From an uncultured bacterium (lineage in GTDB: Bacteria > Krumholzibacteriota > Krumholzibacteriia > LZORAL124-64-63): a stretch of 64,000 nucleotides of DNA. The notes below the pieces were generated by a model. That model ran no database searches and was not told the origin of the DNA. It worked only from the letters and a program-made list of their open reading frames with translations. How positions within the stretch are numbered: position 1 is the stretch's first letter; each line of letters starts with the position of its first letter. This document shows positions 25,103-43,545 of this stretch, piece after piece. The stretch is taken from contig CAVSGO010000007.1 in assembly GCA_963727525.1 (NCBI GenBank), forward strand, positions 640,001-704,000, in the 5' to 3' direction. The translations under genes and the position numbers were made by a program.

Positions 25103-26855
25103 TCTGCTACGCGTGCAGGGGTTGACGGTGCAGTACGCCGGCAGCGACGTGCCGGCCCTGGATGCATGCGACCTGCAGATCGCGGCCGGCGGGACGCTCG
25201 CCGTGGTCGGCCCCTCGGGCAGCGGCAAGACGACGCTGGCTCGCGCCCTCCTCGGTCTGTTGCCGCGCGGCGCGGTGCGGGCGGGCACGCTCACGTGGCG
25301 CGGCCACGAGCTGGGCGACGAGGACCTCTGGCGGCGGCTGCGCGGCCTGGAGATCGGGCTCGTGCTCCAGGATCCGCAAACCGCGCTCAATCCCGTCCTC
25401 ACGGTGGGCGAGCAGATCGCCGCGCCGCTGCGCGCCCACCAGAAACTCGCGCCTGCGGCGGCGGCCCGACGGACCGAGGCGCTCATGGCCGAGGTGCGGT
25501 TGCCCGACCCGGCGCGGCTCGCGCGCTGCTACCCCCATGAGCTGAGTGGCGGCATGCGGCAGCGCGTGGGGGTGGCCGCGGCGCTGGCGGCATCGCCGTC
25601 CCTGCTGGTGGCCGACGAGCCGACCGCGGCGCTGGACGTGTCGACGCAGCGCGAGATCCTCAACCTGCTGCGCTCGCTGCAACGGACGCGGCGGCTCGCA
25701 CTGATCTTTGTCACGCACGACCTCGCGATCGTTCCGCTGGTCGCCGACCGCGTGCTCGTCCTCGCCGAGGGCGTGGTGGTCGAGGAGGGTTCGGTCGCGA
25801 ACGTGATGGCTGCGCCGAGGCACGCCGTCACGCGCGCCCTCGTCGGCGCCGTGCCGCCGGATCGTGCGTCGGCGGAATCGACCCTGCCCGTGCTCGCGGC
25901 GCGAGGCATCGGTGTCACGCTCACGGGGCCGCGTGGTCGGCGGCAGACCGTCGTCACCGATGTCGATCTCGATCTCGTCCCCGGTCAGACACTCGGCCTG
26001 GCCGGAGAATCGGGCTGTGGCAAGACGACGCTGGCGCGTGCGCTCGTGCGCCTCGTGCCGGCTACCGGTTCGTTGCGTTTGGCCAACCACGACCTCTTCG
26101 CGGCGCGCGGCGCGGCGCTGCGCCGGCTGCGTCGCGGCGTTCAACTCGTCTTCCAGGATCCGGCGGCCGCGCTCGATCCGCGGCAGACGGTATTCGATGC
26201 GCTGAGCGACGCGTCGACCGCCTCGGGGCGTCATGGCGAGACGGCTTGGCGGGCGGCGGCGAACCTGTTGGCCGAGGTCGACCTGCCCATCTCGGTGGGG
26301 CGCAGCTATCCCCACGAACTGTCAGGTGGGCAACAGCGCCGCGTCGTCCTGGCGCGCGCCCTGGCCGCGGAACCGTACGTGATCATCGCCGACGAGCCGA
26401 CGACCTCCCTCGATCCGCCCACCCAGGTGCACGTGCTCGAGACGCTGCACGACCTGCAGGCGCGGCGCGGTCTCGCCATTCTCCTGATCTCGCACGATCT
26501 GGGCTTGCTGATGCGGGTGTGCCACCGCGTGGCCGTGATGTTCGCCGGCCGTATCGTCGAGGTCCTGCCTACGACGGGGGGAGGGGAGGCGATGCATCCC
26601 TGCACACGCGACCTGCTCGCCGCCTCGCCGACGGCGCCTCGCGACCTGCAGGAACCCCGGAATGGCGTGCCTCCGCCGCCCGTGGACCCGGTCGCGGCCG
26701 CGCGCCATGGATGCCCCTACGCGGTGCGTTGTCGGCAGCGGCAACCGTCGTGTCTGCAAGCGATTCCCGACCTCCTGCCGGTAGGCTCGGGGCACTTTGT
26801 CCGCTGCCCCATCGTCGCAGGGCCCGTGCAAGAGCAATACATTGACACGGTATAG
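25089..26855 (+). CDS. Fused double ABC ATPase (DppD-DppF type)
   Basis: Two NBDs (GPSGSGKT/LSGGM/ADEP and GESGCGKT/LSGGQ/ADEP) and a C-terminal Cys-containing oligopeptide-ABC tail GCPYAVRC. Confidence 0.92.
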   Translation: MVPADLLRVQGLTVQYAGSDVPALDACDLQIAAGGTLAVVGPSGSGKTTLARALLGLLPRGAVRAGTLTWRGHELGDEDLWRRLRGLEIGLVLQDPQTALNPVLTVGEQIAAPLRAHQKLAPAAAARRTEALMAEVRLPDPARLARCYPHELSGGMRQRVGVAAALAASPSLLVADEPTAALDVSTQREILNLLRSLQRTRRLALIFVTHDLAIVPLVADRVLVLAEGVVVEEGSVANVMAAPRHAVTRALVGAVPPDRASAESTLPVLAARGIGVTLTGPRGRRQTVVTDVDLDLVPGQTLGLAGESGCGKTTLARALVRLVPATGSLRLANHDLFAARGAALRRLRRGVQLVFQDPAAALDPRQTVFDALSDASTASGRHGETAWRAAANLLAEVDLPISVGRSYPHELSGGQQRRVVLARALAAEPYVIIADEPTTSLDPPTQVHVLETLHDLQARRGLAILLISHDLGLLMRVCHRVAVMFAGRIVEVLPTTGGGEAMHPCTRDLLAASPTAPRDLQEPRNGVPPPPVDPVAAARHGCPYAVRCRQRQPSCLQAIPDLLPVGSGHFVRCPIVAGPVQEQYIDTV

Positions 26856-26870
26856 GCCAATCTCTATATT
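26842..26870 (+). promoter_or_regulatory. Sigma70 promoter of the TonB-dependent receptor operon
   Basis: TTGACA-17 nt-TATATT. Confidence 0.75.
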
Positions 26871-27058
26871 CAAGCACCAGTTGCAAGTATGGACGCTGGC
26901 CGGGAGTTCCGCGCTTTGCGAGTTGCAGGATGACCGGATTGAAGGTTCCCCACACAACGCCAGGCTGAAGGTCGGTGCCTGAGATCATTCAAGTCTTTCG
27001 CGGGTCCGCCCGGTACACCGTCGTGACCGAGGCGGGTTCGTTCGAAAGGAGCCACAGC

Positions 27059-30000
27059 ATGCTCCGGCGTTTCCGTGTCCTGCGGATGCTCGTCGTGTTG
27101 AGTCTAGTGGGGCTGGTCGTTGCCGGCGTCCCATCGCGCGTCTGGGCCCAGGGTGCTCCGGCGATGATCAAGGGAACCGTCGTCGATGGCGAGAGCGGAG
27201 AACTGCTCGACTACGCCAACGTCGTCATCAAGGGGACGACGCGTGGCACCATGTCGCTGGGCGGTGGCGCGTTCTACTTCCGCGACATTCCCGCCGGCAC
27301 CTACACCATCCAGATCCTCTACCTAGGCTACGAGCCGGCCGAGCGGACCGTGACCGTGGCGCCGGGCGAGACCAAGACGCTCGAGTTCCGGATGAAGGTG
27401 ACCATCGTCGAGACCCTCGGCGAGTTCGAGGTCGACGCTGCCAGCTACATGGTCGACGTGAAGGGTATGAAGACCAGCCACGACATCGGCGCGGAGAAAT
27501 TCGAGCAGTTCGCGATCGACTCCGTGGAGGACGCTCTGGCGCGCCAGGCCGGTATCGTGATGCGCGCCGGCCAGCTCTACGTGCGCGGCGGCCGCTCGGG
27601 CGAGGTCCAGACCCAGATCGACGGCGTGTCGGTGGACAACCCCATCGGTGGCGGGACGCTTTCGGTGTCGACCCTCGCCGTCGAGAACGTCCAGGCCGTG
27701 ACCGGCGGTCTCGACGCCGAGTACGGCAACGCGCTCTCCGGCGTCGTGAACATCACCACCAAGACCGGTAGCCGCGAGAAGTTCGAGGGCGGTCTGCGCT
27801 TCCTGACCGACGACTTCGGTCGCCAGGACCGCACCTACACCAACTTCGACCGCTTCGAGTACGGCTTCGGCGGCCCGTCGCCCGTGAAGAACCTCACCTA
27901 TTACGTGTCGGGCGACCTCGTCTGGTCGGACAACGAGAACTTCTCGGTGGCCAACCGTCCCGAGTACTCCATCAATTTCGGCGACAAGAACCTCTTCACG
28001 CTGCGTCGCCGTCAGGCCAACAGTGTGCGTGGGTCGGCGAAGCTGGCCTACTACTTCGACGACAAGAGCAAGAAGCTCCTTACCGCGGAATACACGTACT
28101 CGGCGTCGTGGGATCAGTACTACTCGCCGAACTGGAGCGTCGAAGGTTACGTCCAGAAGCTGATCTACATGCCGCAGGTCATCTCGTTGAGCCGATTCGG
28201 GGGCGACAATGCGGACACGTACCTGTACACGGGCTCGCAGATCCCGGTGTACTACGGTCCCTGGTACGATCAGATGCTGGCGACGGCGCGTCCGGCCGTG
28301 GTGCTCGATTCCCACAACTCCAGCGCCACCCGGCATACCGTGCCGATCATGCAGGTACGTTCGGCCGCGTCCGGCGACGTCTTCACTGTCGCGGCCCAGC
28401 CGTCGTTCGAGGGTTTTCGCTATCCGTATTCGCAGTTCTCGAACGTGGCCGAGGATTCCTCGTACGTATACTTCAATTCGGCCAATAACGACCGCCAGAA
28501 CACGAAGCTCAGCCAGAGCGCCAAGCTGGTCTGGCGCCACAGCCTGAGCGAGGATACATTCTACACGGTGCGCCTGGCGCTCGTGGCGTTCGACACGCAT
28601 GTCGACGTCAATGGCAAGGATCCTTACCAGTACAGTCACGGCGGCATCTACTCTCCGGGGTTGTTCTCGGGACAGACGACGATCTACACCACCGCGAACG
28701 ACTACTACACCGACCGGCTGAATCCGCTGTATGTGACCACAAGCGACTACCCGCGCTGGGAAGAACAGTACAGCCGCACCTATCAGCTCAAGTTCGACCT
28801 GACGAGCAGCCGGTGGAAGGGACACCTGGCGCGAACCGGTCTGCTCTTCGTCTACAACGATCTGGCCGAGACGTCGCTGAGCTCGCCGGCCATCGAGTCG
28901 CGCGACCGCTACACGCTCGAGTACCAGCTCGGTGCGAACCGCAACGTGTTCCATACGTACAATCCCGAGGCCTCGTGGTACATCCAGGACCGCTGGGAAT
29001 ACGAGGGCATGGTGGTCAACTACGGATTCCGCTGGGACATGTTCTCGCCGGGGTCGGCGGCCGAGATCCTCCTGCGGAACAACGACGTCGACCGCAACGT
29101 GGTGAAGTACAAGACGCAGTTCTCGCCGCGCCTGGGCTTCGCGTTCCCGATCACGGAGCGTGACGGCTTCAGCTTCTTCTACGGCCGCTTCATCCAGTTC
29201 CCCGATCGCGCGAATCTCTTCGCGAGCCAGCAGGTGGTGGGCAATCAGGGCACCCTGGGCAACCCCAATCTCAACGCCGAGACGACCATGACCTACCAGG
29301 CCGCCATCCAGCACCAGTTCACCGACTACCTGGCCGGTTCGTTCGCCATCTACTCGAAGGACATCTACGACCTGATCTCGGCGACGCAGGTCACCGACAG
29401 CGAGACCGGCAACACGCTGTACCGGTACATCAACAAGGCCTACGCCTCGGCGCGCGGTGTCGAGCTGTCGCTGAACAAACGGTTCAGCGACAGCTTCAGC
29501 TTCGACGTGGCGTACACCTTCGCGTATGCCGACGGCGTGGCGTCGTCCACGGAGTTCGGTACCAATTCCGAGGGTCTCGCCTACCTGCCGAGCCAGGAGC
29601 TGCCGCTGGACTGGGATGTCCGCCATGCGATCAACGTGGGTCTCTACCTCGCGGAACCTGGCTCGTGGTCAGGTTCCGTGGACATGGCCTACAATAGCGG
29701 CTTCCCCTGGACGCCGAACGACCGCTTCGCCAAGCGCCAGGATCCCTTACTCGAGAACAGCAAGCGTTTGCCGTCGACGTTCAACGTCAACATCCAGTTC
29801 CGCCGCGAGCTGAATGTCTACGGGCAGCACCTCACCCTGGAACTCCAGGGGCTCAACCTGCTCAACGAGGATGAGCCACAGGCCCCGGGGCAGAACATCC
29901 TCCCCGGCCTGCAGAACGCCACGTCCGCGTATTACTCTTACTTGACGGAAACGGGCAAGTTCGGCGGCGCATTCCTGCAGGACCAGAACGGCGACACGTT

Positions 30001-30082
30001 CAACGAATTCATTCCGATCAACGATCCCCGGGTGTTTGGGGCGCATCGCCTGTTCCGGGTCGGACTCGGGTGGAAGTTCTAG
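27059..30082 (+). CDS. TonB-dependent receptor with N-terminal carboxypeptidase-regulatory-like domain
   Basis: Signal peptide; IKGTVVDGESGELLDYANVVIKGT; plug VRGGRS..IDGV, GGLDAEYGNALSGVVNITTK; FSPRLGFAFP; GNPNL; C-terminal GLGWKF. AAGGAG RBS. Confidence 0.92.
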   Translation: MLRRFRVLRMLVVLSLVGLVVAGVPSRVWAQGAPAMIKGTVVDGESGELLDYANVVIKGTTRGTMSLGGGAFYFRDIPAGTYTIQILYLGYEPAERTVTVAPGETKTLEFRMKVTIVETLGEFEVDAASYMVDVKGMKTSHDIGAEKFEQFAIDSVEDALARQAGIVMRAGQLYVRGGRSGEVQTQIDGVSVDNPIGGGTLSVSTLAVENVQAVTGGLDAEYGNALSGVVNITTKTGSREKFEGGLRFLTDDFGRQDRTYTNFDRFEYGFGGPSPVKNLTYYVSGDLVWSDNENFSVANRPEYSINFGDKNLFTLRRRQANSVRGSAKLAYYFDDKSKKLLTAEYTYSASWDQYYSPNWSVEGYVQKLIYMPQVISLSRFGGDNADTYLYTGSQIPVYYGPWYDQMLATARPAVVLDSHNSSATRHTVPIMQVRSAASGDVFTVAAQPSFEGFRYPYSQFSNVAEDSSYVYFNSANNDRQNTKLSQSAKLVWRHSLSEDTFYTVRLALVAFDTHVDVNGKDPYQYSHGGIYSPGLFSGQTTIYTTANDYYTDRLNPLYVTTSDYPRWEEQYSRTYQLKFDLTSSRWKGHLARTGLLFVYNDLAETSLSSPAIESRDRYTLEYQLGANRNVFHTYNPEASWYIQDRWEYEGMVVNYGFRWDMFSPGSAAEILLRNNDVDRNVVKYKTQFSPRLGFAFPITERDGFSFFYGRFIQFPDRANLFASQQVVGNQGTLGNPNLNAETTMTYQAAIQHQFTDYLAGSFAIYSKDIYDLISATQVTDSETGNTLYRYINKAYASARGVELSLNKRFSDSFSFDVAYTFAYADGVASSTEFGTNSEGLAYLPSQELPLDWDVRHAINVGLYLAEPGSWSGSVDMAYNSGFPWTPNDRFAKRQDPLLENSKRLPSTFNVNIQFRRELNVYGQHLTLELQGLNLLNEDEPQAPGQNILPGLQNATSAYYSYLTETGKFGGAFLQDQNGDTFNEFIPINDPRVFGAHRLFRVGLGWKF

Positions 30083-30132
30083 TTTTCCGCTGCCGGCGGG
30101 CCGTCCCGTCGGTGGGCAGGAGAGGAACGACG

Positions 30133-33021
30133 ATGAGATTGAGCTGCAGCAGGGACACACGCCGACCAGGGATGAGTCTCGTCTCGGCCATCGCCCTCTT
30201 CGCGATCATGGTGAGCGCGGCCTCGGCCTTTGCCTGGAAAGATCCCGATACGTTCGGTGGCGGGCCGTACGATCCCCATAGCGCGCTGGTGACGCACGGC
30301 GAGTACGTCATGAACGTGGGCAACCTCCAGATCAACATCACCAACTGGGGATTGATCGGTTCCTACCCTGGCTCGGGGTACACTTTCTCGGACGCACCGT
30401 CGGCACAATGGCCGGCCGGTAGCGGCAACGAGTACCTGTTCGCCGCAGGTATCTGGATCGGCGGTGTCTTGCTGGGGCAGACGGTGGTCTCGACGGGCCA
30501 GTACCAGCAGGAGATCACGGCGCGCGGCGAGGTCGCGGAGGATACGATCTACGAGGCCAAGGCCGCGCAACTCGTCCGGCCGGCCGGGAACTCGATTGCC
30601 AGCGGCCGCCGCTTTCCCGAACCCGACTCCAATGACGACGGGGACACATTCCCGTCGCCACCGTACGCCTCGGGCGTCCCGCTGGTCGACGAGGAAGTGC
30701 TCAACGGCTACGACGACGACGGTGATGGCCTGATCGATGAGGATTTCGCGCAGATCGGCAACCAGATGTTCGTGACCACGGAGTACGACAACACGCGGCT
30801 TGCCCAGCAGCGGTACCCGGATCACACGCCGATGAATCTGGAAGTGATCCAGTCGACCTACGCCTGGGAGAGCGATCTGGCGGACAACTTCGTGGGATTC
30901 AGCTACGCCATCGCGAATATCGGCGTAACCACGATAAGCAACGTCTACATCGGATTCTTCGCCGATGCCGACATCGGCCCGCGCAGCGGAACGAACGTCG
31001 CGTCCGATGACATGGTGGGCTCCTACTCCGGACCCGTGCGTGCGTCGGATGGGTCCTGGGTACCCGTCGAGGTCGGCTACATGTACGATGCCGCGGAGAA
31101 CAACCGCCTCGACGGCTACTTCGGCATCGCGTTCCTCGGACACGACACCGACCCCTCCGGCCTCCACGCGCCGAAGCGTGTGCAGCTCCGGTCGTTCCAG
31201 CGGTTCTCAGGCTCCTCGAGCTTCCAGCAAGGCGGCGATCCGACCAACGACAACGAGCGCTACGAACTGCTCAGCCGCCAGGAGCGCGATCAGAACTCGC
31301 CCCCGGGCAAGGCCGACGACTACCGGTTCCTCGTCTCTGGCGGTCCATTCGAGACCCTTGCGCCTCAGGATACGTTGCACTTCGACGTGGCCATGGCCGT
31401 GGGGCCGGGGCTCAATGGGCTCCTTTCCGTCTGTGCGGAGGCCACGCTCACGTATTTCGGCAACTACTTCGATCAGATCACCTCGGCGACCAATCATCAG
31501 GACGAACAGTTCAATCCCGGCATGAACGGGCGGGAGGCGCGGGTTTGTCGTGACGACTTCGTGCCGCCCGAGGCCTTCGATCAGATCCGTCCGGACTTTG
31601 GCGACACGTCGTGCGTGTCGCAGAGCTATCTGCTTGCGCAGCCCGCGCTGTCGAGCGCGGAGGTCTTCTCCTACATCGATCCGCTCGGCCATCGCAAAGA
31701 CTGCGCCTACGTCAACCTCGACAACTGTTTCGAGTGCTATCGCCAGAAGCCCCATACCCTGGGACAGTCGGCCGAAGATGCCCGGTGCACCCAGGCCGAT
31801 GTCGAGCAGTACTGGGATTGCAACCAGTCGGACCACGGTCCCGGTTGCACGGGCGTCGACGGCAACGAGACGCAGGTGAAGTGGCTGGTCGGCATGGCGC
31901 CGCCTCCGCCGGGGATGCGTGTCTGGCCCACCGACGACACCGTGCACGTGTACTGGGATGATCTGAGCGAGAATACGCCGGACGTTCGCCTCAACTTGAT
32001 CGATTTCGAATCGTACCGCATCTGGCGCGCGGACAACTGGACGCGTCCCTTCGGCTCGTCCGTCGACAACGGACCGGAGTCTGCGCTCTGGCAGCTCATC
32101 GCCGAGTACGACGTGGTCGACTCCTTCACGGCTGCCATCACGATCCCGCCGGACACGTTTGTCTACTATCACCGGTTGCCGCTGGGGCGGAACACCGGGA
32201 TGAACGCCATCAAGTACCAGCCCGCCGTGCTGGGCAACCCGCGGTTCGCCGGCCTCATGGAGGCCACCGAGGCGATCGTCCTCGCGGACCGTCTGGGAGC
32301 GATCGTCGCCCGCCCGGACCTCTACGACGAGTTCGGCCAACCGATCGAAGCCTACCAGGGGCTGATTCCCTGGCAAGGCTACCCCTCCGTGCTCGATACG
32401 TTCTGGGCCGAGGCAGCCCGGCCGGGCAGCACGTACGTGGATCCGAATTCCGGCGATCTGGTCGTGGTCTCACGAGAGAAGAAGCCGACCCAGTATTACG
32501 AGTACGTCGACCACAACGTTCATAACGGGTATCTGTATTTCTACTCCGTGACGGCGTCGGATCATGGTGTCGCCCTCAATGACGGGGTTGCGAGGATCTC
32601 CGGCCCGGGACAGTCGGGCGACCCCGCGTCGTCGTTCACCGACACGTCGCCGGGCACATTGGCGCAGACGGCCGAGGAGCGCAACCGATATGGCGCCAAC
32701 ATCTTCGTGTATCCGAATCCGGCTACGCGCGACGCGCTCGCTGATTTTCAGCAGTTCCAGCCGTCGGGTACGGACCCGACCGGCGTGCGCGTGAATTTCG
32801 CGAATCTTCCGGCCGCGCATAACACGATCAAGATCTTCACGCTCAGTGGCGATCTCGTGCAGACCATCGACCACGACGGCACGGGAGGATATGGCGAGGC
32901 GAGCTGGAATCTCATGAGCCGGAATTCGCAGGAGATCGTCAGTGGCATCTACCTGTATGTCGTCCATGCGGACGACAGCAGGTTCGAGGATTTCATCGGC
33001 AAGTTCGTGGTGGTGCGGTAA
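30133..33021 (+). CDS. Secreted acidic protein with T9SS type-A CTD/FlgD-Ig-like C-terminal domain
   Basis: Signal peptide; DDDGDGLIDED Ca-binding-like motif; Cys-rich insert; C-terminus VYPNP...IKIFTLSGDLV...WNL...SGIYLY...KFVVVR. Start could be 30172. Confidence 0.8.
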   Translation: MRLSCSRDTRRPGMSLVSAIALFAIMVSAASAFAWKDPDTFGGGPYDPHSALVTHGEYVMNVGNLQINITNWGLIGSYPGSGYTFSDAPSAQWPAGSGNEYLFAAGIWIGGVLLGQTVVSTGQYQQEITARGEVAEDTIYEAKAAQLVRPAGNSIASGRRFPEPDSNDDGDTFPSPPYASGVPLVDEEVLNGYDDDGDGLIDEDFAQIGNQMFVTTEYDNTRLAQQRYPDHTPMNLEVIQSTYAWESDLADNFVGFSYAIANIGVTTISNVYIGFFADADIGPRSGTNVASDDMVGSYSGPVRASDGSWVPVEVGYMYDAAENNRLDGYFGIAFLGHDTDPSGLHAPKRVQLRSFQRFSGSSSFQQGGDPTNDNERYELLSRQERDQNSPPGKADDYRFLVSGGPFETLAPQDTLHFDVAMAVGPGLNGLLSVCAEATLTYFGNYFDQITSATNHQDEQFNPGMNGREARVCRDDFVPPEAFDQIRPDFGDTSCVSQSYLLAQPALSSAEVFSYIDPLGHRKDCAYVNLDNCFECYRQKPHTLGQSAEDARCTQADVEQYWDCNQSDHGPGCTGVDGNETQVKWLVGMAPPPPGMRVWPTDDTVHVYWDDLSENTPDVRLNLIDFESYRIWRADNWTRPFGSSVDNGPESALWQLIAEYDVVDSFTAAITIPPDTFVYYHRLPLGRNTGMNAIKYQPAVLGNPRFAGLMEATEAIVLADRLGAIVARPDLYDEFGQPIEAYQGLIPWQGYPSVLDTFWAEAARPGSTYVDPNSGDLVVVSREKKPTQYYEYVDHNVHNGYLYFYSVTASDHGVALNDGVARISGPGQSGDPASSFTDTSPGTLAQTAEERNRYGANIFVYPNPATRDALADFQQFQPSGTDPTGVRVNFANLPAAHNTIKIFTLSGDLVQTIDHDGTGGYGEASWNLMSRNSQEIVSGIYLYVVHADDSRFEDFIGKFVVVR

Positions 33022-33083
33022 GTCCCGTTCACGAGGAAACGGGCCGCCACCAAACCCGTCGCAAGACGGACCTGGAGGAGAAC

Positions 33084-34016: not shown

Positions 34017-34038
34017 GCATGCCGGATCGTGTCCTCCT

Positions 34039-34070
34039 GCCGCCTCGCCAGTTTCGACCGGCGGGGCGGC
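34039..34070 (+). terminator. GC-rich hairpin after the PorV-like gene
   Basis: GCCGCCTCGCC...GGCGGGGCGGC stem without a U-tract. Confidence 0.35.
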
Positions 34071-34167: not shown

Positions 34168-35808
34168 ATGAACACGCGCGGATATCGAAGTCGGGTCGGA
34201 ACCCTGGCGGTCGCCATCGTGGTGGTCGGTGCATCGGTGGCCGGCGCCGCCTGGCTTCGACCCGTCGAGGGCGGCGGCAATTTCCATTGCACGGTGGACC
34301 TGGCGAATTTCCAGGAGGCCGATGGACGACTCGATGTCGTCGTCATGGTGGCAATAGAGAACCGCGAGATCGAGTTCGAAAGGGTCGATGGCCGCTGGCA
34401 GGGCAAGTTGCATGCGGTGGCCACTCTCAGTCGTGGCGCGGACGATTCGCTGGTCACGGTGACGGCTGAGGCCGACGTGCCCGTACATGCCCGGAGCGAG
34501 CAGGAGGCCGGCTCGCCGACGCTGACGCAGATCTTCACCCTCGTGCTCCGCGATGTCCCCTTCCACGACGGCACGTTCCAGCTCGATCTGAACGATCTCA
34601 ACCGACGGCGCCCTGTATTTCTCAGCTTCATCAACAAGGAACCGGCGTTCAGCCAGGCGGTGGCCGACTGGTCGGCGCCGCCCGAGGGGAACGGCCGCGG
34701 CCTCGTCGTGGGGGATCTGGTGTTCCTCGCCCACGCGCCCATTGCCGAGTGGTCGGCGCGCGCGGTGCGTCCCGACTCCCTCGCCAGTGGCGGGCCATGG
34801 GATTACCTGCACCCGCTGCGTCGCTACGGACTCGAGCAGACGCAGGTGCAGGTGTACTTCGAGCTGCAGCCGCCGCACGATTCCGCCCGGTGGCGCGAGG
34901 CGTCGGGCCGGGACCTTCTCGTCGAGGTCCTCAGCAAGGAACTCGATTTCGCGCTCCGCGACACGTTGTCGCTGACGCCCACTGCCCGGCAGGCTCTGGC
35001 CGCCGGCCGGCCGGCCGCCATCTATTACCAGCTCGACGGCTCGCTACTCCCACCTGGTGCGTTCCGGCTCGGAATAGCGCCCCTGGACTCGGTCGGGAGG
35101 GGCTACCTGGGCGAGTTCGATGTGACCTGGCGCCTCGATCAGGTGGCCCGCGGGCTCGAGGACTTGCTCGGCGAGGGCCATACCGTGCTGCGGGGAGAGC
35201 AGCTGCGAAAGTTCGACCACGCGTCGCGCATGGAGCAGGAGGTCATCCTCGATCGTTTCTGGCAATCGCTCGACCCCGATCGCTCCGACCCCTACAACGA
35301 GGTCTATGCCGAATTTCGCCGGCGCGTCTCCCATGTCCGGGAGCATCTCGGCGGTTTCGGGGCGGGCGGTGCGAGGGACGCCCGGGGGCGGGTCTATCTC
35401 CTGCTCGGCCCACCGGATGAGATCCAGACGCACGTCATGCCACTGAACGAGTCGGATCTCGAGGACGCCAGGGTCAAGGTGTATGAGCCGTACGCGCCGG
35501 ATCGGGAGGGGACCTTCGCCAAGGGAAACTATGCGACCGAGACATCGGCATCGCGAATCGTGTTCACGCCTGTCATTCCCATGCCTTACTCGTTCACGGC
35601 GGCGATGGAGATCCAGCAGAACAAGACGAGTGTCAAGCGGGAACACGGATTTGAACTGTGGCGGTACACGCGGCGTGGGGACGGGCTGTTCCCGAACGCC
35701 TATTCGGACGCCGGCGCGTTCGCCGGTTTACGTTTCCTGTTCGTGGATAGCGACGGAACCGGACGGTTCGAACTGCAGTCGTCGAACGCATTCAAACAGG
35801 GCGATTGA
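34168..35808 (+). CDS. GWxTD-domain protein (exported)
   Basis: Signal peptide; RFWQSLDP...NE...EFRRRV, GARDARGRVYLLLGPPDE, ELWRY, FLFVD..GTGRFEL. Confidence 0.8.
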   Translation: MNTRGYRSRVGTLAVAIVVVGASVAGAAWLRPVEGGGNFHCTVDLANFQEADGRLDVVVMVAIENREIEFERVDGRWQGKLHAVATLSRGADDSLVTVTAEADVPVHARSEQEAGSPTLTQIFTLVLRDVPFHDGTFQLDLNDLNRRRPVFLSFINKEPAFSQAVADWSAPPEGNGRGLVVGDLVFLAHAPIAEWSARAVRPDSLASGGPWDYLHPLRRYGLEQTQVQVYFELQPPHDSARWREASGRDLLVEVLSKELDFALRDTLSLTPTARQALAAGRPAAIYYQLDGSLLPPGAFRLGIAPLDSVGRGYLGEFDVTWRLDQVARGLEDLLGEGHTVLRGEQLRKFDHASRMEQEVILDRFWQSLDPDRSDPYNEVYAEFRRRVSHVREHLGGFGAGGARDARGRVYLLLGPPDEIQTHVMPLNESDLEDARVKVYEPYAPDREGTFAKGNYATETSASRIVFTPVIPMPYSFTAAMEIQQNKTSVKREHGFELWRYTRRGDGLFPNAYSDAGAFAGLRFLFVDSDGTGRFELQSSNAFKQGD

Positions 35809-35872
35809 AGGGACGCAAGGCCGGCCTGCGCGAGCGCCGAATATGAGAATACCGTTTGACTTAGGTAGGGCG

Positions 35873-35902
35873 TTGACACAAATTACATGCCACCGGTATA
35901 CT
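35873..35902 (+). promoter_or_regulatory. Sigma70 promoter of exbB-exbD-exbD-tonB
   Basis: TTGACA-18 nt-TATACT in an AT-rich patch. Confidence 0.7.
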
Positions 35903-36065
35903 GCCGAACCCGGTGATTTCGCGGGCGACCGAGGGTGTACGGATAGCCGACGCGGGGACAGGGACGACAGGGTCGATGAAGGCACCCACCAGAGCATCGA
36001 CCCCGGTCTCCGGTAGAATTCTGGAGCATCATCCGGGCCCCACTCAGGAAAGGGAGATTAGCGCA

Positions 36066-36935
36066 ATGGCTCGTCACGGTTCGCTGAAGAAGGCCGGCCT
36101 CTTCGCCATCGGCCTCGCTCTGCTCGTCATGGCCAATGTCGCGCCGGCGTTCGCACAGGACGACGCGGATGTGCCGTCCAACGAGCGCATCGAGAAGATC
36201 ATGGCCACGCCCGACTCCCTGGGCTTCGCCAAGACCGCGGCCGACTCGGCGAGCCTCGTGCCCGTCTACATCGAGCCGATTGGCGGCCTCATGGGTGTGC
36301 TCGAGCGCAGCCCGCTCGGCAAGACCGGTTTCGGCAAGTTCTTCGTCAAGGGCGGCAGCTTCATGTGGTGGCTGCTGCTGATCGGCATCGTGGGTCTGGT
36401 GTTCATCCTCGAACGCATGTGGACTCTCAATCGCGCCAAGGTGAACACGCGCAAGCTCATCGGCACCGTGATCACGACGCTCAAGACCGAGGGCGTGCAG
36501 GCGGCCGCCGAGGAATGCCAGAAATGGCGCGGCCCGATCGCGGCCATCCTGTACTCGGGTCTGCAGAAGTCGGACAGGGGCGACGAGGCCGTGGAGAAGG
36601 CCATCAGCACCGCCGGCGTGATCGAGATGAGCTTCCTGGAGCGAGGTCTGGTGTGGGTGTCGTCGGTGACGACCCTGGCGCCGCTCGTCGGCTTCCTCGG
36701 TACGGTGTCGGGTATGATCCATGCCTTCGAGGCGATCGCGGCCAGCGAGCAGGTGAACGCCAAGCTGGTGGCGTCGGGTATCTCCGAGGCCCTCATCACC
36801 ACCGCCACGGGCCTCGTACTCGCCGTGCCGGCGACCATCGCCTACAACTTCTTCGTGGCGTCGATCGACCGCTTCACCATCGAGATGGAAGAGGCGGCCA
36901 TGGAACTGATCGAGGCACTCGACAGTATGCGATAG
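36066..36935 (+). CDS. exbB: MotA/TolQ/ExbB proton channel protein
   Basis: KGGSFMWWLL, APLVGFLGTVSGMIHAF, GISEALITTATGLVLAVPA; N-terminal signal-like extension. Confidence 0.9.
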   Translation: MARHGSLKKAGLFAIGLALLVMANVAPAFAQDDADVPSNERIEKIMATPDSLGFAKTAADSASLVPVYIEPIGGLMGVLERSPLGKTGFGKFFVKGGSFMWWLLLIGIVGLVFILERMWTLNRAKVNTRKLIGTVITTLKTEGVQAAAEECQKWRGPIAAILYSGLQKSDRGDEAVEKAISTAGVIEMSFLERGLVWVSSVTTLAPLVGFLGTVSGMIHAFEAIAASEQVNAKLVASGISEALITTATGLVLAVPATIAYNFFVASIDRFTIEMEEAAMELIEALDSMR

Positions 36936-36980
36936 CGGTTCACGCGTGCTGATGGACCCGGACCAGAGGAACGAAGAACC

Positions 36981-37400
36981 ATGTCGGTGATGCGGAAGAA
37001 GAAGAAACAGGCGATCGGCGAGATCAACCTCGCCTCGACGTCGGATATCTCCTTCCTGTTGCTGATCTTCTTCATCGTGACGACGATCTTCGCCGAAGAG
37101 CAAGGTCTGATCATGATCCTGCCCGGCAAGCAGAAGAACAAGGAAGACATCGTCAAGGTGAAGCAGAGCAACATCGCGACGATCAGGATCAGCAAGAACA
37201 ACGCGCTCACGCTCGACCAGAAACCGATCCAGCTGGCGCACGTCGAGTACGCCATCAGGGATCGTATTCTCAACAACGAGAAGACGGTCGTCGTGCTCGA
37301 GACCGATCCGGACGCGTATTATGGCACCATGGTGGCCGTGCTCGATGAGCTGAAGCTGGCCAACGCCCGCAAACTCACGCTGAAGACGACGGGGAGGTAG
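36981..37400 (+). CDS. exbD: Biopolymer transporter ExbD/TolR
   Basis: EINLASTSDISFLLLIFFIVTT with the conserved TM Asp; D..AYYG.MVAVLDEL. Confidence 0.9.
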   Translation: MSVMRKKKKQAIGEINLASTSDISFLLLIFFIVTTIFAEEQGLIMILPGKQKNKEDIVKVKQSNIATIRISKNNALTLDQKPIQLAHVEYAIRDRILNNEKTVVVLETDPDAYYGTMVAVLDELKLANARKLTLKTTGR

Positions 37401-37405
37401 GGGCG

Positions 37406-37828
37406 GTGGACTTTAATCGGTCGGCCAGGAAAGATCCCTACATTCCCACGGCTTCCATGGGCGACATCGTCTTTCTGCTGCTCATCTTCTTCATGGTCAC
37501 GACCATCTTCCGCAAGGAAGTCGGTCTGCCGGTGGAGTTGCCGCGCGCCGAAGCGGGCGAGGAAGTGCAGCGCGATCTGGTGTCCAACATCTACATCGAT
37601 CGGTTGGGGCGTATCTCGGTGGACGACCGGCTGGTGCAGACGCGGTTCATCTCGGACATCTTCGGCAAGAAGATCCAGAATAACCCGCAACTCATCGTGG
37701 CCTTCAAGACGGACAAGATGACGCCGTACGGTACGGTGAGCGACGTGATGGAAGAGCTGAAAGACGTCAACGCGGTGAAGGTGTTCTTCCACAACGACGT
37801 GGAAGTGCGCCCGCCGACGAAGTACTAG
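37406..37828 (+). CDS. exbD: Biopolymer transporter ExbD/TolR (second copy)
   Basis: IPTASMGDIVFLLLIFFMVTT, VELPRA, D..TPYG.V.DVMEEL. Confidence 0.9.
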   Translation: MDFNRSARKDPYIPTASMGDIVFLLLIFFMVTTIFRKEVGLPVELPRAEAGEEVQRDLVSNIYIDRLGRISVDDRLVQTRFISDIFGKKIQNNPQLIVAFKTDKMTPYGTVSDVMEELKDVNAVKVFFHNDVEVRPPTKY

Positions 37829-37851
37829 GATTGGGGAGAAGCGAGAGTGCC

Positions 37852-38505
37852 ATGAGTACGTCGAGTGCCACGCCTGCCTACCGAATGTCGGCCAATGCCG
37901 AGTTCAAGGCGCAGTATGGCAAGACGCTGCGCTGGTCCTTGCTGGGTGCCATCCTCATCGTGCTCATCGCCTTTTTCGTGTCGCCGGAGATCAAGTTCAA
38001 ACCCTACAAGATGCGGCAGCAAGAGATGGAGCTTGTCGAGCTGAATGACACGCCCCAGGACTTCGAGTTGCCGCCGCCCGTGGAAGCCCCGACGCCGCCG
38101 AGGGTGATCGAGGCGGCTCCCGATGATGCGGTGACGGACGACGTCGAGATCGCCGACACGCTGATCGACCTCACGGCCGCCCTGAACGACGGTATGGGAG
38201 CGATCAGTCTGGACAATGGCGAGCAGTTCGTGGTATCCGCCGAGAATCCCAAGTTGCTGCAGCGGGTTCAGCCCGAGTATCCGGAGATGGCCCGCATGGC
38301 GCAGCTCCAGGGCACGGTCATCGTGAAGGTGCTCGTGGGACCGGATGGCACCGTGCTGGACGCCCAGGTGGTCAAGAGCGTGAACCCTACGCTCGATCAG
38401 TCCGCGCTCGCGGCCGCTCGGCGCACCAAGTGGATCCCGGGCAAACAGCGCAATATTCCGGTCAAAGCCTGGATGGCGCTGCCGTTCAATTTCAAGCTCC
38501 ACTGA
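37852..38505 (+). CDS. tonB: Energy transducer TonB
   Basis: N-terminal TM, Pro-rich linker, C-terminal PEYPEMARMAQLQGTVIVKVLV..DG.V, ALAAAR..KW.PG. Confidence 0.92.
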   Translation: MSTSSATPAYRMSANAEFKAQYGKTLRWSLLGAILIVLIAFFVSPEIKFKPYKMRQQEMELVELNDTPQDFELPPPVEAPTPPRVIEAAPDDAVTDDVEIADTLIDLTAALNDGMGAISLDNGEQFVVSAENPKLLQRVQPEYPEMARMAQLQGTVIVKVLVGPDGTVLDAQVVKSVNPTLDQSALAAARRTKWIPGKQRNIPVKAWMALPFNFKLH

Positions 38506-38751
38506 TCGGTCCCGCCTGGCCGCTGTTCGGCCACCGGAGGGAACCTCGCGGCTCGGGGCCGCGTCCTAGAGGCGCGGCCCTTCGCATCGGTCCCGCGACA
38601 TCGAGCGCTGGAACCTGCAACCCGGAGCGTTGGAGCACGTAAGTGCTGCGGTCGCCAGTGGAATCTGCCTGGCCAGGCGACCCATCCGTCGCTAGAATGC
38701 CCTTGGCCGGCGGCCGCGCCGGCCGGCAACCTGTCGCAAGGAGAGCGGTCC

Positions 38752-40215
38752 ATGTCTGCTAGCTACCCCTCGGTCTCGCCGCGACTCGCCAGCCTCTGGC
38801 TCGTCTTCATCCTCGCCGCCGGCGTGACGGCGAGCGTGGCGGCGGCGCCCGCCGCGAGCGACAGCAGCGCGGCAGTGCCCGTGCTCAGCCTCCGCGACTG
38901 CGTCGATATCGCGCTCGATGGCAGCATCCAGCTGCGCATCGCCGAGCAGCAGGACGATATCGCGCGGCAGGATATCAAGTCGGCGTGGGGCGCCTTCCTG
39001 CCCAGCGTGTCCCTGTCGTCGAGCTACCGCAAGAGCAACCGCACCGACTACGGCTCCGTGACGCCTGTCTACTCCTCGCAGCAGTTGCCGATGGTCGACA
39101 CGGGCGGTGACACGCTCTACTTCCCGACCGCGGTGGAGACGGGGACCATCACCGAGGATGTGAAGACGAAGTCCACGTACAAGGATGTCGGCGCGAATTT
39201 CGGGCTCACCCTCTTCGACGGACTGAGCAACGTCAACACGCTCAAGGCGGCGAAGGCCTCCGCGTCGGCGGCGGCTCACCAGCAGGTGTACACGCGCTCG
39301 CAGGTGATCCAGAACGTCGCCGTGGCCTACTACAACTTGCTGCGCTACCTCGCCCTGCGTGACGTGGGTGCGGAAGACCGTGACCGGGCGGCCAAGGAGC
39401 TCGAGCGCACCGAGACTTACTTCCGACTCGGTAGCGCAGCCAAGGCCGATGTACTCCAGCAGCGCGTGCGCCTCGAGAACACGAAGCTTGCCCTGGTGAC
39501 GGCCGAGAACCAGGTACAGCAGGCCTTCGCCGATCTCGCCTACGCGATGTATCGCCCACTGGAGTCCCCGTTCGACATCGATCGCTCGCCGCTCACTGCG
39601 AACATGCAGGTGGCGCCCATCGACTCGCTCTACACCGAGGCCCTGGCCAACCGCGAGGACCTGAAGGCCGATGCGATGACCATGGAGGCGCGTCAGAAGC
39701 AGGCCGCCGCCGCCGGGGGCGCACTGCTGCCCCAGGTCGACGCCTTCGCCGGCTACACGCGCTACAACAACCAGTCGCCTTACCGCTTCGGTTCGCAGAC
39801 CTCGGGGAGCTGGAGCTACGGCGTGCAGGGAAGCTGGTCCATCTTCAACCACTTCCAGAACTGGACGCGTCGGTCTCAGTCCAAGGCCAACGCGCGCATC
39901 GCGGAGTATAATTTCCAGCAGGCGCAGTTCGACGCTCAGCTCGAGGTGCGGCGCTTCCACAACTCGATGGTCGAGGCACGCGAACGTCTGGCCGTGAGCC
40001 GCGAAACCATCGCCCAGGCCGAAGAGGAACTCCGTCTGGCACAGGAACGCTTCCGCGTCGGTGCCGGTACCCAGCTCGACAAGATCACGGCCGAGGTCAG
40101 CCTGGCCCAGGCCAAGTCGGACGAGGTGCAGGCCATCTGCGACTACCTCATCGCGCGCGCTCAGCTCTACCGGGCGCTGGGGCGTCTCGACGATATCCAG
40201 AAGGTCGAACGGTGA
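38752..40215 (+). CDS. TolC family outer-membrane efflux protein
   Basis: [41 protein letters not shown]. Confidence 0.9.
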
Positions 40216-40913
40216 CAGCGGGCCACCTCATCACGCTACGCGGGCTCGTGAAGACCTACGTGGTGGGGACGCAGGAAGTCTACGCCGTGTGCGGTCTCGA
40301 CCTGATCATCGATCCGGGCGAGTACGTGGCGGTGATGGGCAGCAGCGGCTCGGGCAAGTCGACGCTGATGAACTTGATCGGCTGCCTCGACACGCCCACC
40401 GCCGGCTATTACGAACTGAACGGACGTGACGTGAGCCACCTCGACGAGGACGAGCTGGCGCGGATCCGCAACGAGGAGATCGGCTTCGTCTTCCAGACCT
40501 TCAACCTGCTTCCCCGCAGCACGGCGGCGCAGAATGTCGAGCTACCATTGATCTATGCCGGTGTGCCGGTGGCCGAGCGCCGCGAACGCGTGCAGGAGGC
40601 CCTCACCTCGGTGGGCCTGGCTGATCGTGTGCACCATCGGCCCAACGAGCTGAGCGGCGGCCAGCGGCAGCGGGTGGCGATCGCACGGGCGCTCGTGAAC
40701 CGCCCGTCGCTGCTCCTGGCCGACGAGCCCACCGGCAATCTCGATTCGCGTACCAGCGAGGAGATCATGGCCCTGCTGAGTGATCTGGAGCAGCAGGGCC
40801 AGACGATCATCCTGGTCACTCACGAGTCGGACATTGCCGCGTTCTCACAGCGCATCATCCGGCTGCACGACGGCACCATCTCGAGCGACGAGCGTAATGC
40901 AGTCCGTCGCTGA
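40212..40913 (+). CDS. ABC ATP-binding protein (LolD/MacB type)
   Basis: [47 protein letters not shown] overlap with tolC. Confidence 0.93.
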
Positions 40914-42180
40914 ATCGCGCCGCCGGGCATGCCTCATCGCACTCTGTTTTTTGATCGGGGCGGTGGTCCTGGTCGGATGCGCGGGCAGCGGTCCGGGGCT
41001 CGGCGAGTCGGGCGATTCTCACCTGCCTCTGCAGGCTTTCGTGGCTACCCGCCTCGACTCGGCCGGCCACGCCGAGGCGCAGGTCCGCGTGGAGACTACC
41101 CATCGCGCCCTGGTGTTCACCCGCGGCGACGCCGGGTTTCACAGCGAGCTGGTCGTACTCGTCACGGCCCGGCGGGGCGACGATCAGGTCGGTGGCGGAG
41201 TCGGACAGACCACGGTCGACGTGATGAGCTACGAGGCGACGCGATCGAGCGACGCCGTGATCGTGGATGTCCCCCTCGTCGTGCGCGGCGGCGACGACGT
41301 CGTCCTCGCCGTCACCGCGTCGGTACGCCAGACGCAGCGTCGCTGGCAGCGGCGCCTCGCCTTCTCGCCGCACGCCCTGGCTGCGATGCCCCTGGCCGTG
41401 CAGCATGTGCGCATGAGCCCACCGGCGGGCGCGGCCGGGACCCATGTCGTCACGGCCGACGACGACACGGTGCGCCTGGCCGTAGGGTTGCGTCGCACCA
41501 GTGAGCCCTGGCCGCAGTCGGGCGTGCGGCTCGTGGCCACCCTCACCGCCAGTGGTCTTACCGAGCCGCGGTCGGTGGTGCGCGATATCGCGCCGCCGGC
41601 GGCCGCGCGCGACTCGGTGGCGACAGATCTCGAATTCCCCGCCACGCAACTCCCGTTCGGCCGCGTCTCGATCGAGCTGTCTCTCGACCTGTTGCGCGAC
41701 GGACATCGGCAGAGCCTCCCATACGGACGTCCCCTTGCGCTGGAGGTGCTACGCGTCCCCGTGGACGACGACCACGCCTGGCGCCGCCACGTGGGCTGGC
41801 TCAAGGGTCTGTTGCCGGACGCGGTGCAGGACTCGTTGCGCGCCCTGCCTGCCGCGCAGCGTCAGGCAGCCTGGACGGCGGCGTGGCAACGCATCGCCGC
41901 GTCGCGATCCGAAGATCCGCAGACCGCGGCCCTCGACCATCTGCGCCGCATCGTGACTGCCGACGAACGATTCGGGCAGTTCGGTCGTGGCGCTCTCAGC
42001 GATCGCGGGCGCGCCATCATCCGCTATGGCGAGCCCGGCCACGTCGAGCGGTACCTGGACAACCTCTCGGGGACCGGTGTCTGGGAGATCTGGGAGTACC
42101 CGGATCTGGGACTGCGCCTGCTTTTCTTCGACGCCCACGGTATGGGCGATTTCCAGCTCTCCGACGTCCAGCACGTGTAG
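40897..42180 (+). CDS. GWxTD-domain lipoprotein
   Basis: Lipobox [41 protein letters not shown]. Confidence 0.75.
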
Positions 42181-42276
42181 TGCGGACTCAAGAATTCCGA
42201 CGCGGAGTCGAAATCAGGGAGGTCACCCGAGATCCCCGCGGGCGCTGCGCACTTGCGAGCCGGCGCTGAGGTCCAG

Positions 42277-43545
42277 ATGTACTTCTACGCGTTCTACCCT
42301 CTCGGCCTCGACGTGCGCCTTGCACGTCGTCCCTGGTTGTCGATCAGCCTCGTCGCGGTGATGGTGGGGGTCTTCCTCTGGTTGCGGTACTTTCCTTACG
42401 CCGGACCCGTCTATCCGGGCAGCCTGATCTTCTGGCCTGGCAACGGTGTGCCCGCAACCACGGTGACGGCCATATTCCTGCACGGAAGCTGGATGCACCT
42501 GCTGGGCAACCTGGTCTATCTCGGTGTCTTCGCGCCAGCGATGGAGGACCGGCTGGGGCGGGGACGATTCTTGCTCCTGTTCCTCATGCTGGGAGTCGCC
42601 GGCAATCTGGCGCACGGCGTGGTGGCGATGGAGGGCTGGCTCGGGCAACGTGGGCTGGCCGTGCTCGGTGCGTCGGGGGCGATCTCGGGGTTGCTCGGGC
42701 TCGCGCTCGTGCGGTTCTCGTTCGCGCGGGTGGCGATCGCTTACTGGGTGTTCGCGCCGCTGCAGGGGCAGAATCGCGCCGGGCGCGCGATGCTGCCGGT
42801 ACCGGTGGCCGTGCTATCGTGGTTGCTGCTGCAACTCGTGCACACGGCCGTGGCCCGCGAAGCCGCGGCCACGGTGTCGTATGGCGCGCATCTCGGCGGC
42901 TTTGGCCTGGGAATCGTACTGGGCTTCATGCTCGGTCTGCGGCGCGAAGCGCGCGCCGAGGCGAGTCTGCAGCGCGCGCGCGACTACCTCGGCCAGGGCG
43001 TGGGTTTCGCCGCCATGGGCGCCTACGACGAGTACCTGGCTCATGCGCCGGACGATGCCGAGGTCCAACGCGAGCAGGCGCGCGCCGCGCTCATGGCGGG
43101 CCAGCGGGGACTGGCGCGCCAGCGCTATCAGACGCTCGTGCGGCGTTACCGCGACGCGGGACGCCTCGACCAGGCTTGCGACGTCTATCTCGAGGGTCGT
43201 CGCCTGCAGCGTGGTCTGGGGTTGCCTCCGCACGAACTCGCGGCGGTGGCCCACTGGCTGGAGAAGTCGGGTGCGTCCGCGAGTGCCGTGCACGCGTACG
43301 AGGACCTCGTGGAGATGTACGGGAGCCATCCCGAGAGCGACCGCGCGTGGGTGCGTATCGTGATGCTGCTGCACGGCGCGCTGGGGGAGACGGAGGAGGC
43401 GCGGCAGTGGCTCGCGCGCGCCCGGAAGGCGTTGCCGTCCGGGGCATGGCGGGACTTCCTGGAAGGTGAGTTCAGGCAGGAAACAACCACGCGTGCAGGT
43501 CTGGCAGCACCTCCGGCACCCGCAACGCCGGGACGAGCACCCTGA
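42277..43545 (+). CDS. Rhomboid intramembrane serine protease with C-terminal TPR-like domain
   Basis: FLHGSWMHLLGN, catalytic GASG, YGAHLGG; helical C-terminal region. Confidence 0.88.
   Translation: MYFYAFYPLGLDVRLARRPWLSISLVAVMVGVFLWLRYFPYAGPVYPGSLIFWPGNGVPATTVTAIFLHGSWMHLLGNLVYLGVFAPAMEDRLGRGRFLLLFLMLGVAGNLAHGVVAMEGWLGQRGLAVLGASGAISGLLGLALVRFSFARVAIAYWVFAPLQGQNRAGRAMLPVPVAVLSWLLLQLVHTAVAREAAATVSYGAHLGGFGLGIVLGFMLGLRREARAEASLQRARDYLGQGVGFAAMGAYDEYLAHAPDDAEVQREQARAALMAGQRGLARQRYQTLVRRYRDAGRLDQACDVYLEGRRLQRGLGLPPHELAAVAHWLEKSGASASAVHAYEDLVEMYGSHPESDRAWVRIVMLLHGALGETEEARQWLARARKALPSGAWRDFLEGEFRQETTTRAGLAAPPAPATPGRAP

Follow-up and report, generated by a model that had tools for sequence, protein, structure and literature searches.

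The genes for a TonB-dependent receptor (TBDR), a large secreted protein with a C-terminal domain (CTD) of the kind associated with type IX secretion systems (T9SS), and a PorV-like outer-membrane barrel form a conserved trio in an uncultured bacterium of the phylum Krumholzibacteriota. They open a cluster of twelve envelope genes, all on the plus strand, at positions 26975–43545 of the stretch of DNA analysed here, a window of 64,000 nucleotides with a G+C content of 67% (contig C7, positions 640001–704000, of a genome of 4.66 Mb in eight contigs, 96.7% complete). The order of the genes is TBDR, CTD protein, PorV-like barrel, GWxTD protein 1, ExbB, ExbD, ExbD, TonB, TolC, ATP-binding cassette (ABC) ATPase, GWxTD protein 2 and rhomboid (Table 1). 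An original prediction, made from the window alone, had proposed that the first three proteins make up a dedicated module, and this proposal was supported by the synteny of the genes, by the grouping of the barrels in one clade and by a docking model. We read the trio, together with the Ton motor, as a TonB-powered import module in which the large protein is a surface partner tethered by its own PorV-like barrel and does the job of SusD or RagB, a reading that we regard as about an even call.

To survey the neighbourhood of the trio, loci were sampled from numbered genomes (29 plus 5) and from named records (80), and the window proteins were placed on them by tblastn. Among the first 29 loci, 22 carried the cluster and seven held stand-alone paralogues of the large protein. 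After two duplicates were dropped, 54 distinct loci of Krumholzibacteriota type were obtained, which are kin and not independent samples; the count for each gene refers to the loci with enough flanking sequence. The core, comprising the receptor, the PorV-like barrel, GWxTD, the Ton motor, TolC and the ABC ATPase, was kept in nearly all 54 loci. The TBDR was found in 45 of 46 loci and a cargo-like gene in 42 of 51 (37 of 47 when the N-terminal domain of the large protein was required), and the PorV-like proteins were 50–80% identical across the phylum. GWxTD protein 1 (41/45), ExbB (41/43), each ExbD (39/42), TonB (33/42), TolC (38/40) and the ABC ATPase (36/39) recurred as well, and a Dpp/Opp-type ATPase lay 5' of the TBDR in 20 of 27 loci. 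In Krumholzibacteriota the trio is fixed beside the Ton motor and usually beside a Dpp/Opp-type permease, and GWxTD protein 1 is part of the conserved core. Some loci departed from this arrangement: one (L082) has lost the TBDR and retains a CTD remnant of 123 amino acids (aa), and in two (L061 and L112) the barrel is flanked on either side by the large gene. Three records labelled 'uncultured Fibrobacteraceae bacterium' (L099, L100 and L102) carry a PorV-like gene 65–67% identical to that of the window in the Krumholzibacteriota gene order; these labels are probably wrong.

The trio recurs beyond Krumholzibacteriota. Other lineages account for 50 of the 80 named loci, with PorV-like genes 32–38% identical to the window copy; their labels include Ignavibacteria/Ignavibacteriales, Zixibacteria, Calditrichota, KSB1, Cloacimonadota, Kryptonia, Neomarinimicrobiota, metagenome-assembled genomes labelled Chlorobi or Bacteroidetes, and others. 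Among the 38 of these loci with at least 6 kb of upstream sequence, a TBDR on the same strand was present in 37, a cargo-like gene in 37 and both in 36. Two orders were observed, either TBDR, CTD protein, barrel, or CTD protein, further genes, TBDR, barrel. Conservation of the gene arrangement throughout the phylum, and of the trio in other phyla as well, takes it far beyond chance. The original prediction had called for a survey, across genomes of the Fibrobacterota–Chlorobiota–Bacteroidota (FCB) group, of synteny with a fourth gene, GWxTD; this link was strong within Krumholzibacteriota, at the frequency given above, and was not seen outside it, where GWxTD adjoined the trio in none of 50 loci searched by tblastn and in none of six downstream genes scanned with the NCBIfam hidden Markov model. 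Likewise, Ton genes (ExbB) adjoined the trio in one of the 50 outside loci, a Cloacimonadota locus (L134, 1449–10987) in which ExbB-ExbD-ExbD-TonB lie between the TBDR and the CTD protein/PorV-like pair, and where motor and trio were thus brought together independently. In a Calditrichota locus (L162, 3674–12854), a gene matching an endo-dextranase model (NF052487, 623 bits, below the cut-off of 730) lies 3' of the trio, a context like that of a nutrient or polysaccharide locus. The genome of the window itself holds two further trios, one on contig C8 (CTD protein, TBDR, PorV-like barrel, NHL protein) and one on contig C3. The latter (C3:383104–389624, L093) looks broken, with the PorV-like gene in three frames and the TBDR split into two open reading frames (ORFs), either because these are pseudogenes or because of assembly errors.

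A quick maximum-likelihood tree of the barrels, rooted at the midpoint and with the Krumholzibacteriota rows thinned to one in three, placed all 61 TBDR-linked barrels, including the window and C8 copies, in one clade (Shimodaira–Hasegawa-like approximate likelihood ratio test, SH-aLRT, 97). This clade leaves out the PorV paralogue adjacent to PorU and five other paralogues of the same genome, and within it the barrels that lie directly 3' of a TBDR form a sub-clade (SH-aLRT 100).

The window barrel clears the cut-off of 90 bits of the PorV/PorQ family model NF033709 by a wide margin (Table 1) and that of the Pfam PorV model narrowly (31 vs 27 bits). It fell short of both equivalog models, scoring 77.9 bits with PorV NF033710 (cut-off 250) and 96 bits with PorQ NF033711 (cut-off 220), and reached 15 bits with the PorP family model (cut-off 90.55). 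Its sole sequence match in the PDB was PorV (6h3i, E = 1e-10). An overlapping Arg-rich ORF of 409 aa (32942–34171) was considered as the barrel gene and rejected, being in the wrong frame and free of family matches. The barrel was also rejected as the general PorV of the cell, a role that better fits the paralogue adjacent to PorU (111 bits with the PorV model vs 63 with that of PorQ). Twelve matches to the PorV family model were detected in the genome, seven of them above the cut-off, and most lie directly 3' of a large CTD protein.

The second gene of the trio encodes a protein of about 950 aa with, as predicted, the C-terminus ...IFVYPNPATR...SGIYLYVV...GKFVVVR. Read from the sequence, its N-terminus is a hydrophobic Sec-type leader ending in AFA|W, after which come a conserved, acidic N-domain some 400 aa long, a middle part rich in Cys, FN3-like domains and the T9SS-type CTD. 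No Pfam family matched it at E ≤ 0.01, and its tail gave sub-threshold matches to the C-terminus of PorZ (21.9 bits) and to the PorU tail. Among 43 family members compared at E ≤ 0.01, 39 matched the PorZ model in its C-terminal part, 25 the type-A model TIGR04183 and 20 the PorU tail, and one orthologue carries the source name 'T9SS type A sorting domain-containing protein'. The AlphaFold 2 (AF2) model obtained from an alignment of 58 sequences (predicted local distance difference test, pLDDT, 89.2; predicted template modelling score, pTM, 0.83) has beta-sandwich domains, the Cys-rich middle and a C-terminal sandwich with strands at residues 874–948. The protein therefore combines the features of a T9SS substrate, namely a Sec signal, a C-terminal Ig-like beta-sandwich of about 80–100 aa and a genome that encodes SprA. 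Foldseek found no global relative of the fold in the PDB (template modelling (TM) score ≤ 0.2); the best matches, at the level of domains, were to PorZ (5m11) or the PorU tail and FN3 and to the N-terminal beta-sandwich of GH116/GH94, and the ESM Atlas gave unnamed T9SS-CTD clusters only. Acidic residues predominate among the invariant positions of the N-domain (N58, E114, D156, D158, E174, D183, D185, E190, D191, D206, H218, D280 and D360), in a pattern that looks like calcium sites. The family comprises 210 cluster representatives at E ≤ 1e-30 and was found in all 201 sampled genomes of the phylum, in all but five of them at E < 1e-60 and often in several copies per genome.

To evaluate the predicted fit of the CTD to the barrel, we modelled the complex of barrel residues 21–310 (13-row alignment) with the C-terminal 95 residues of the large protein (57 rows). 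The CTD docked in the model with an ipSAE of 0.84 (0.84, 0.87 and 0.83 in the individual runs), while the best of three controls reached 0.00; among solved complexes 58 of 80 attained that mark, as did two of 110 mismatched pairs. The runs had at least 86% of contacts in common and a partner pLDDT of at least 71. On the barrel side the modelled contacts involve invariant residues, namely the N-terminal FEKVGT stretch and W81-P82-A83-D84, and on the CTD side the last strand. This mode of retention has precedents, given that, according to PMC10202324, PorZ and PorU are the two T9SS proteins with CTDs that are not removed and are retained on PorQ and PorV, respectively.

The original prediction stated that the window holds no SprA or PorU gene, and a search of the whole genome bore this out while locating both genes elsewhere. 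SprA (2272–2280 aa, 480 bits summed) is encoded at C7:606746–613564, about 26 kb upstream of the window start, and PorU (436.5 bits, cut-off 420) about 85 kb downstream of the window end, where the genome's most PorV-like paralogue comes next and makes up a PorU-PorV pair with it. Among the matches to the PorU model that were listed, 44 of 51 cover the CTD end only and represent other CTD proteins. With SprA, PorU and PorV at hand, export of the large protein needs no new route. The same search for the motor genes (porKLMN) gave a different outcome, with no GldK, GldL, GldM or GldN match above the cut-off. SprA was above the cut-off in 41 of 41 Krumholzibacteriota genomes; GldL was above it in none of them, and the GldL model did detect its target in 14 of 61 genomes of the phylum holding an Ignavibacterium genome. 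GldK was likewise above the cut-off in none of the 41, where the partial matches covered the C-terminal part of the model only, and GldM and GldN were not detected in a profile search of the window's own genome alone, run without a positive control (0/1). GldL was not found in five trio-bearing genomes of other lineages either, and a neighbourhood search revealed no motor-like genes around SprA or around PorU-PorV. Because GldK, GldL, GldM and GldN were not detected despite the presence of SprA, PorU and PorV, the genome does not show a complete T9SS of the Bacteroidota type. A SprA translocon without its known motor is the most surprising side result of this work.

Two other regions of the same contig concern CTD proteins. 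At C7:354689–369123 (L089), a second cluster encodes a CTD protein of 2298 aa, a PorV-like barrel with a FlgD_ig tail, a TPR protein of 1005 aa, an ExbB-like protein of 490 aa, two ExbD proteins and a TonB-like protein of 437 aa. At C7:794562–798113 (L091:10562–14113), 3' of PorU-PorV, lies a gene for a CTD protein of 1183 aa that partially matches the model 'T9SS-dependent M6-like inactivated metalloprotease' (186 bits, cut-off 600); it is followed by two unassigned ORFs of 341 and 264 aa, whose C-terminal residues suggest small barrels, and by an NHL-type protein.

The receptor is an ordinary member of its class. Its plug and barrel domains exceed the Pfam cut-offs (Plug, 31.9 bits, cut-off 23.9; TonB_dep_Rec_b-barrel, 73.8 bits, cut-off 27), and the N-terminal CarboxypepD_reg-like domain (CarbopepD_reg_2, 67.4 bits) gives it an Oar/SusC-like architecture. 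TIGR04056, the SusC/RagA signature model, was not among its NCBIfam matches at E ≤ 1, its PDB sequence matches were at plug level only (YncD and PqqU), and Pfam scans showed that the gene 3' of it is not SusD-like. Three of the ten Plug matches of the genome lie in trios. ExbB, with a signal peptide and a periplasmic N-terminal extension, the two ExbD proteins and TonB are encoded together and exceed the cut-offs of the MotA_ExbB, ExbD and TonB_C models, respectively, which confirms the complete Ton motor of the original prediction; its PorV-family barrel and both of its GWxTD genes were likewise recovered by family models. SusD_RagB, whose model was positive in the control Bacteroides thetaiotaomicron, was detected in one of 41 genomes of the phylum. 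This sole match, in the window's own genome (C5:769574–773803), has an in-frame TAA and lies beside a Plug fragment of 86 aa; the two look like what is left of a SusCD pair, perhaps of foreign origin.

Starting from the observed genes, their families, their conserved order and the SprA, PorU and PorV genes found elsewhere in the genome, we infer the following route. Sec would take the protein of about 950 aa across the inner membrane, and the SprA translocon would take it across the outer one. Its CTD would remain uncut and be held by the adjacent PorV/PorQ-like barrel, by analogy with the PorZ tail on PorQ and the PorU tail on PorV. So tethered, the protein could sit over or beside the neighbouring TBDR and capture or present a substrate in the manner of the SusD, RagB and BtuG lipoproteins. 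ExbB-ExbD-ExbD-TonB would open the receptor plug, and the substrate would then cross the inner membrane through the upstream Dpp/Opp-type permease, a possible inner-membrane leg of the uptake route whose proximity hints that the substrate may be peptides or another oligomer. Of the two roles that the original prediction had offered for the trio, a PorV-tethered capture lid replacing SusD is the better fit, in view of the presence of SprA, PorU and PorV, the absence of SusD in 40 of 41 genomes and the ordinary plug of the receptor.

Several observations weigh against an import module of this kind. Since Foldseek gave no functional match for the large protein, substrate capture is purely inferential. 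In 10 of 47 loci (e.g., L083 in genome G019 and L084 in genome G078), the barrel lies directly 3' of the TBDR with no large protein between them, and G019 and G078 carry a member of the large-protein family elsewhere; these loci allow for a barrel that serves the TBDR or a different partner. The window protein scored 16.9–17.0 bits with the type-A CTD model TIGR04183, below its cut-off of 23. PorV-CTD complexes have already been solved (8gl6 and others), so that the docking result indicates likeness to that binding mode and is not proof that this pair binds. The barrel tree is quick and its outgroup paralogues are on long branches. Finally, the strong conservation and universality of the module would also fit a housekeeping role in the envelope rather than nutrient uptake.

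The best-surviving alternative is that the cluster is a conserved neighbourhood without a common machine, in which a shared, stable chromosomal region is all that links a T9SS substrate and its PorQ-like anchor to an ordinary TBDR, to the cell's main Ton operon and to an efflux pair of TolC and ABC ATPase. Two promoter-like sites, one 5' of the TBDR and one 5' of exbB, suggest from sequence that there are at least two transcription units; the near-consensus site announced for the TBDR was found, and the region holds four sites with an 11/12 match, compared with 2.3 ± 1.7 in shuffled sequences. GWxTD protein 2 (17 of 39 loci) and the rhomboid (20 of 39, within the sequence fetched) are variable, and domain scans detected no permease gene adjoining the ABC ATPase, whose best NCBIfam match is to the N-terminal part of MacB (276 bits, under the cut-off of that model). 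Outside the phylum, moreover, the Ton, TolC and GWxTD genes are unlinked to the trio. Against this explanation, the trio is kept together across at least seven named lineages in two gene orders and its barrels form one clade; both facts are difficult to account for unless these three proteins, at the least, are functionally coupled. As an account of the whole cluster we consider a mere neighbourhood unlikely; it is the likely one for TolC, the ABC ATPase, GWxTD protein 2 and the rhomboid, which are tied to the module by neighbourhood alone.

A second alternative, close to the Ton-powered export that the original prediction had offered, is that the Ton motor and the TBDR export the CTD protein as Oar may do, or that the motor replaces GldLM in the SprA/PorV-type transport or seating of CTD proteins. 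The missing Gld proteins in genomes that all encode SprA are in its favour, as are the second cluster of the genome (L089), in which a CTD protein, a PorV-like barrel and a TPR protein are joined to ExbB-ExbD-ExbD-TonB-like genes, and the Cloacimonadota locus in which the motor genes separate the TBDR from the CTD protein. In Myxococcus xanthus, according to PMC6434023, secretion of PopC requires Oar, a TBDR that resembles the window receptor in having a CarboxypepD_reg-type N-terminus and in being tied to ExbB/ExbD/TonB and a secreted protein. Unlike the window cargo, PopC has no CTD, the Oar system has no PorV-like barrel, and the window genome has SprA available. In addition, the link between motor and trio is lineage-specific, the plug and barrel of the TBDR are normal, SprA, PorU and PorV are enough for the known outer-membrane steps, and very divergent motor proteins could escape the models, all the more so for GldM and GldN given the narrow search described above. 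Ton-powered export is unneeded and found no direct support, and we consider this alternative improbable. A broader form of it, in which Krumholzibacteriota, and probably other non-Bacteroidia members of the FCB group, serve dozens of CTD substrates with SprA but without GldKLMN, and in which the Ton motor powers the extraction of CTD proteins from SprA or their seating on barrels, with the trio ancestral to both SusCD and PorQ-PorZ, is slightly less probable still. Least probable of all is that the barrel and its tethered protein assist, in the way of BamG-BamH, the Bacteroidota accessories of the beta-barrel assembly machinery, in assembling the TBDR and other large outer-membrane proteins. 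In favour of this, BamG is (PMC12611786 and PMC12578637) a FadL-family barrel that holds a surface protein, and throughout the phylum the module is present and strongly conserved. Against it, the BamG model NF053685 gave no match to the barrel at E ≤ 1 while matching a FadL-like gene in another locus, PorV is the barrel's only PDB sequence match, and the barrel adjoins the TBDR and not bamA.

The import module that we favour has relatives among known systems. Like PorZ-PorQ and PorU-PorV of Porphyromonas gingivalis, the window pair couples a Sec-dependent, T9SS-type protein with a PorV-family barrel on which a CTD, presumably retained, is predicted, here by modelling, to bind. The likeness is greatest to PorZ-PorQ, as the family CTDs match the PorZ tail best and the window barrel scores higher with PorQ than with PorV. 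Unlike PorZ and PorU, the window partner lacks the PorZ propellers and the PorU peptidase, and the two genes lie side by side next to a TBDR in a genome that has a separate PorU-PorV pair. The arrangement also resembles SusC/SusD, RagA/RagB and BtuB/BtuG, in which a large TBDR with a CarboxypepD_reg-like N-domain is likewise encoded directly 5' of a putative surface partner, and the likeness extends to the nearby inner-membrane importer and to the endo-dextranase gene after the trio in one related locus. In contrast to SusD, RagB and BtuG, the window partner is a non-lipoprotein that is not SusD-like and has a T9SS CTD and an anchor barrel of its own, and the receptor lacks the SusC/RagA signature. 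In Flavobacterium johnsoniae, according to PMC12618676, a type-B CTD substrate adjoins its own PorV-like barrel (PorP/SprF), which sets its final location; the window barrel differs in belonging to the PorV/PorQ family, its CTD is of a type-A or PorZ-like kind, and a TBDR is part of the unit.

Table 1. Features of the cluster and its upstream neighbours (positions in the window)
Feature	Position	Strand	Evidence or remarks
Dpp/Opp-type ABC importer	23235–26855	+	permeases 23235–24221 and 24209–25102; fused double ATPase 25089–26855
Sigma-70-like promoter candidate	26842–26870	+	TTGACA-17-TATATT, 11/12 consensus match, 5' of TBDR
TonB-dependent receptor, 1035 aa	26975–30082	+	Pfam matches above cut-offs
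Secreted CTD protein, ~950 aa	30133/30172–33021	+	translation, AF2 model, CTD-type matches
PorV/PorQ-family barrel, 310 aa	33084–34016	+	NF033709, 205.8 bits
GWxTD protein 1, 546 aa	34168–35808	+	TIGR04514, 53.9 bits
Second sigma-70-like promoter candidate	35873–35902	+	TTGACA-18-TATACT, 11/12, 5' of exbB
ExbB	35913–36935, probable start 36066	+	MotA_ExbB, 112.8 bits
Two ExbD genes	36981–37400, 37406–37828	+	ExbD, 84.9 and 78.8 bits
TonB, 224 aa	37831–38505	+	TonB_C, 81.3 bits
TolC-family outer-membrane channel	38752–40215	+	OEP, 208.5 bits
MacB/LolD-type ABC ATPase	40212–40913	+	ABC_tran, 122 bits
GWxTD protein 2	~40930–42180, ORF opens 40780	+	TIGR04514, 47.4 bits
Rhomboid intramembrane protease with C-terminal TPR region	42253–43545	+	Rhomboid, 91.3 bits

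Family-model scans placed every one of the twelve genes on the plus strand, as expected from the original prediction. Both GWxTD proteins exceed the cut-off of TIGR04514 (28 bits) and remained below the threshold of the Pfam GWxTD_dom model (16.5 bits for protein 1 and 16.2 for protein 2). GWxTD protein 1 has a signal or anchor sequence, tandem beta-sandwich domains and a C-terminal GWxTD domain in a model with a pLDDT of 81.7; searched against the PDB, its fold gave generic tandem beta-sandwich matches only and none for the GWxTD domain itself. A role for GWxTD as an assembly factor is a guess. The Dpp/Opp-type importer matches BPD_transp_1 (135 and 103 bits), ABC_tran twice and oligo_HPY, and a scan of the window detected no substrate-binding-protein gene adjoining it. 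Divergent from it, on the minus strand (19520–22891), are genes for a DUF5723 protein of 434 aa and for a protein of 686 aa without any Pfam family.

Our literature search, which covered papers without their supplements, found none on GWxTD or on Krumholzibacteriota with type IX secretion, and, among the papers listed, none describing a TBDR/CTD protein/PorV-like unit; how SprA and SusCD are distributed across FCB phyla is tabulated in PMC12611786 (Extended Data Table 2), which lay outside its scope and may bear on the distributions given here. A TBDR with a surface partner and the tethering of CTDs by PorV-family barrels are both known, and the cluster is a variant of these and not a new kind of machine, but the proposed lidded-channel arrangement is apparently an undescribed alternative to the lipoprotein lids of Bacteroides. 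The partners of SusCD, RagAB and BtuBG and the anchoring of T9SS proteins on PorV-family barrels have so far been studied separately and almost only in Bacteroidia. The cluster joins both themes in every family of an uncultured phylum, and at least seven other named lineages share its core trio. Should the tethered protein prove to be a lid or bait, it would show what capture devices are used by FCB bacteria that lack SusD, and it would offer, by way of partners, a first approach to the unstudied GWxTD domain and to a large protein family that is so far uncharacterised. The finding of SprA in every Krumholzibacteriota genome searched, and of GldL in none, makes the power source of type IX-like secretion outside Bacteroidia a directly testable question.

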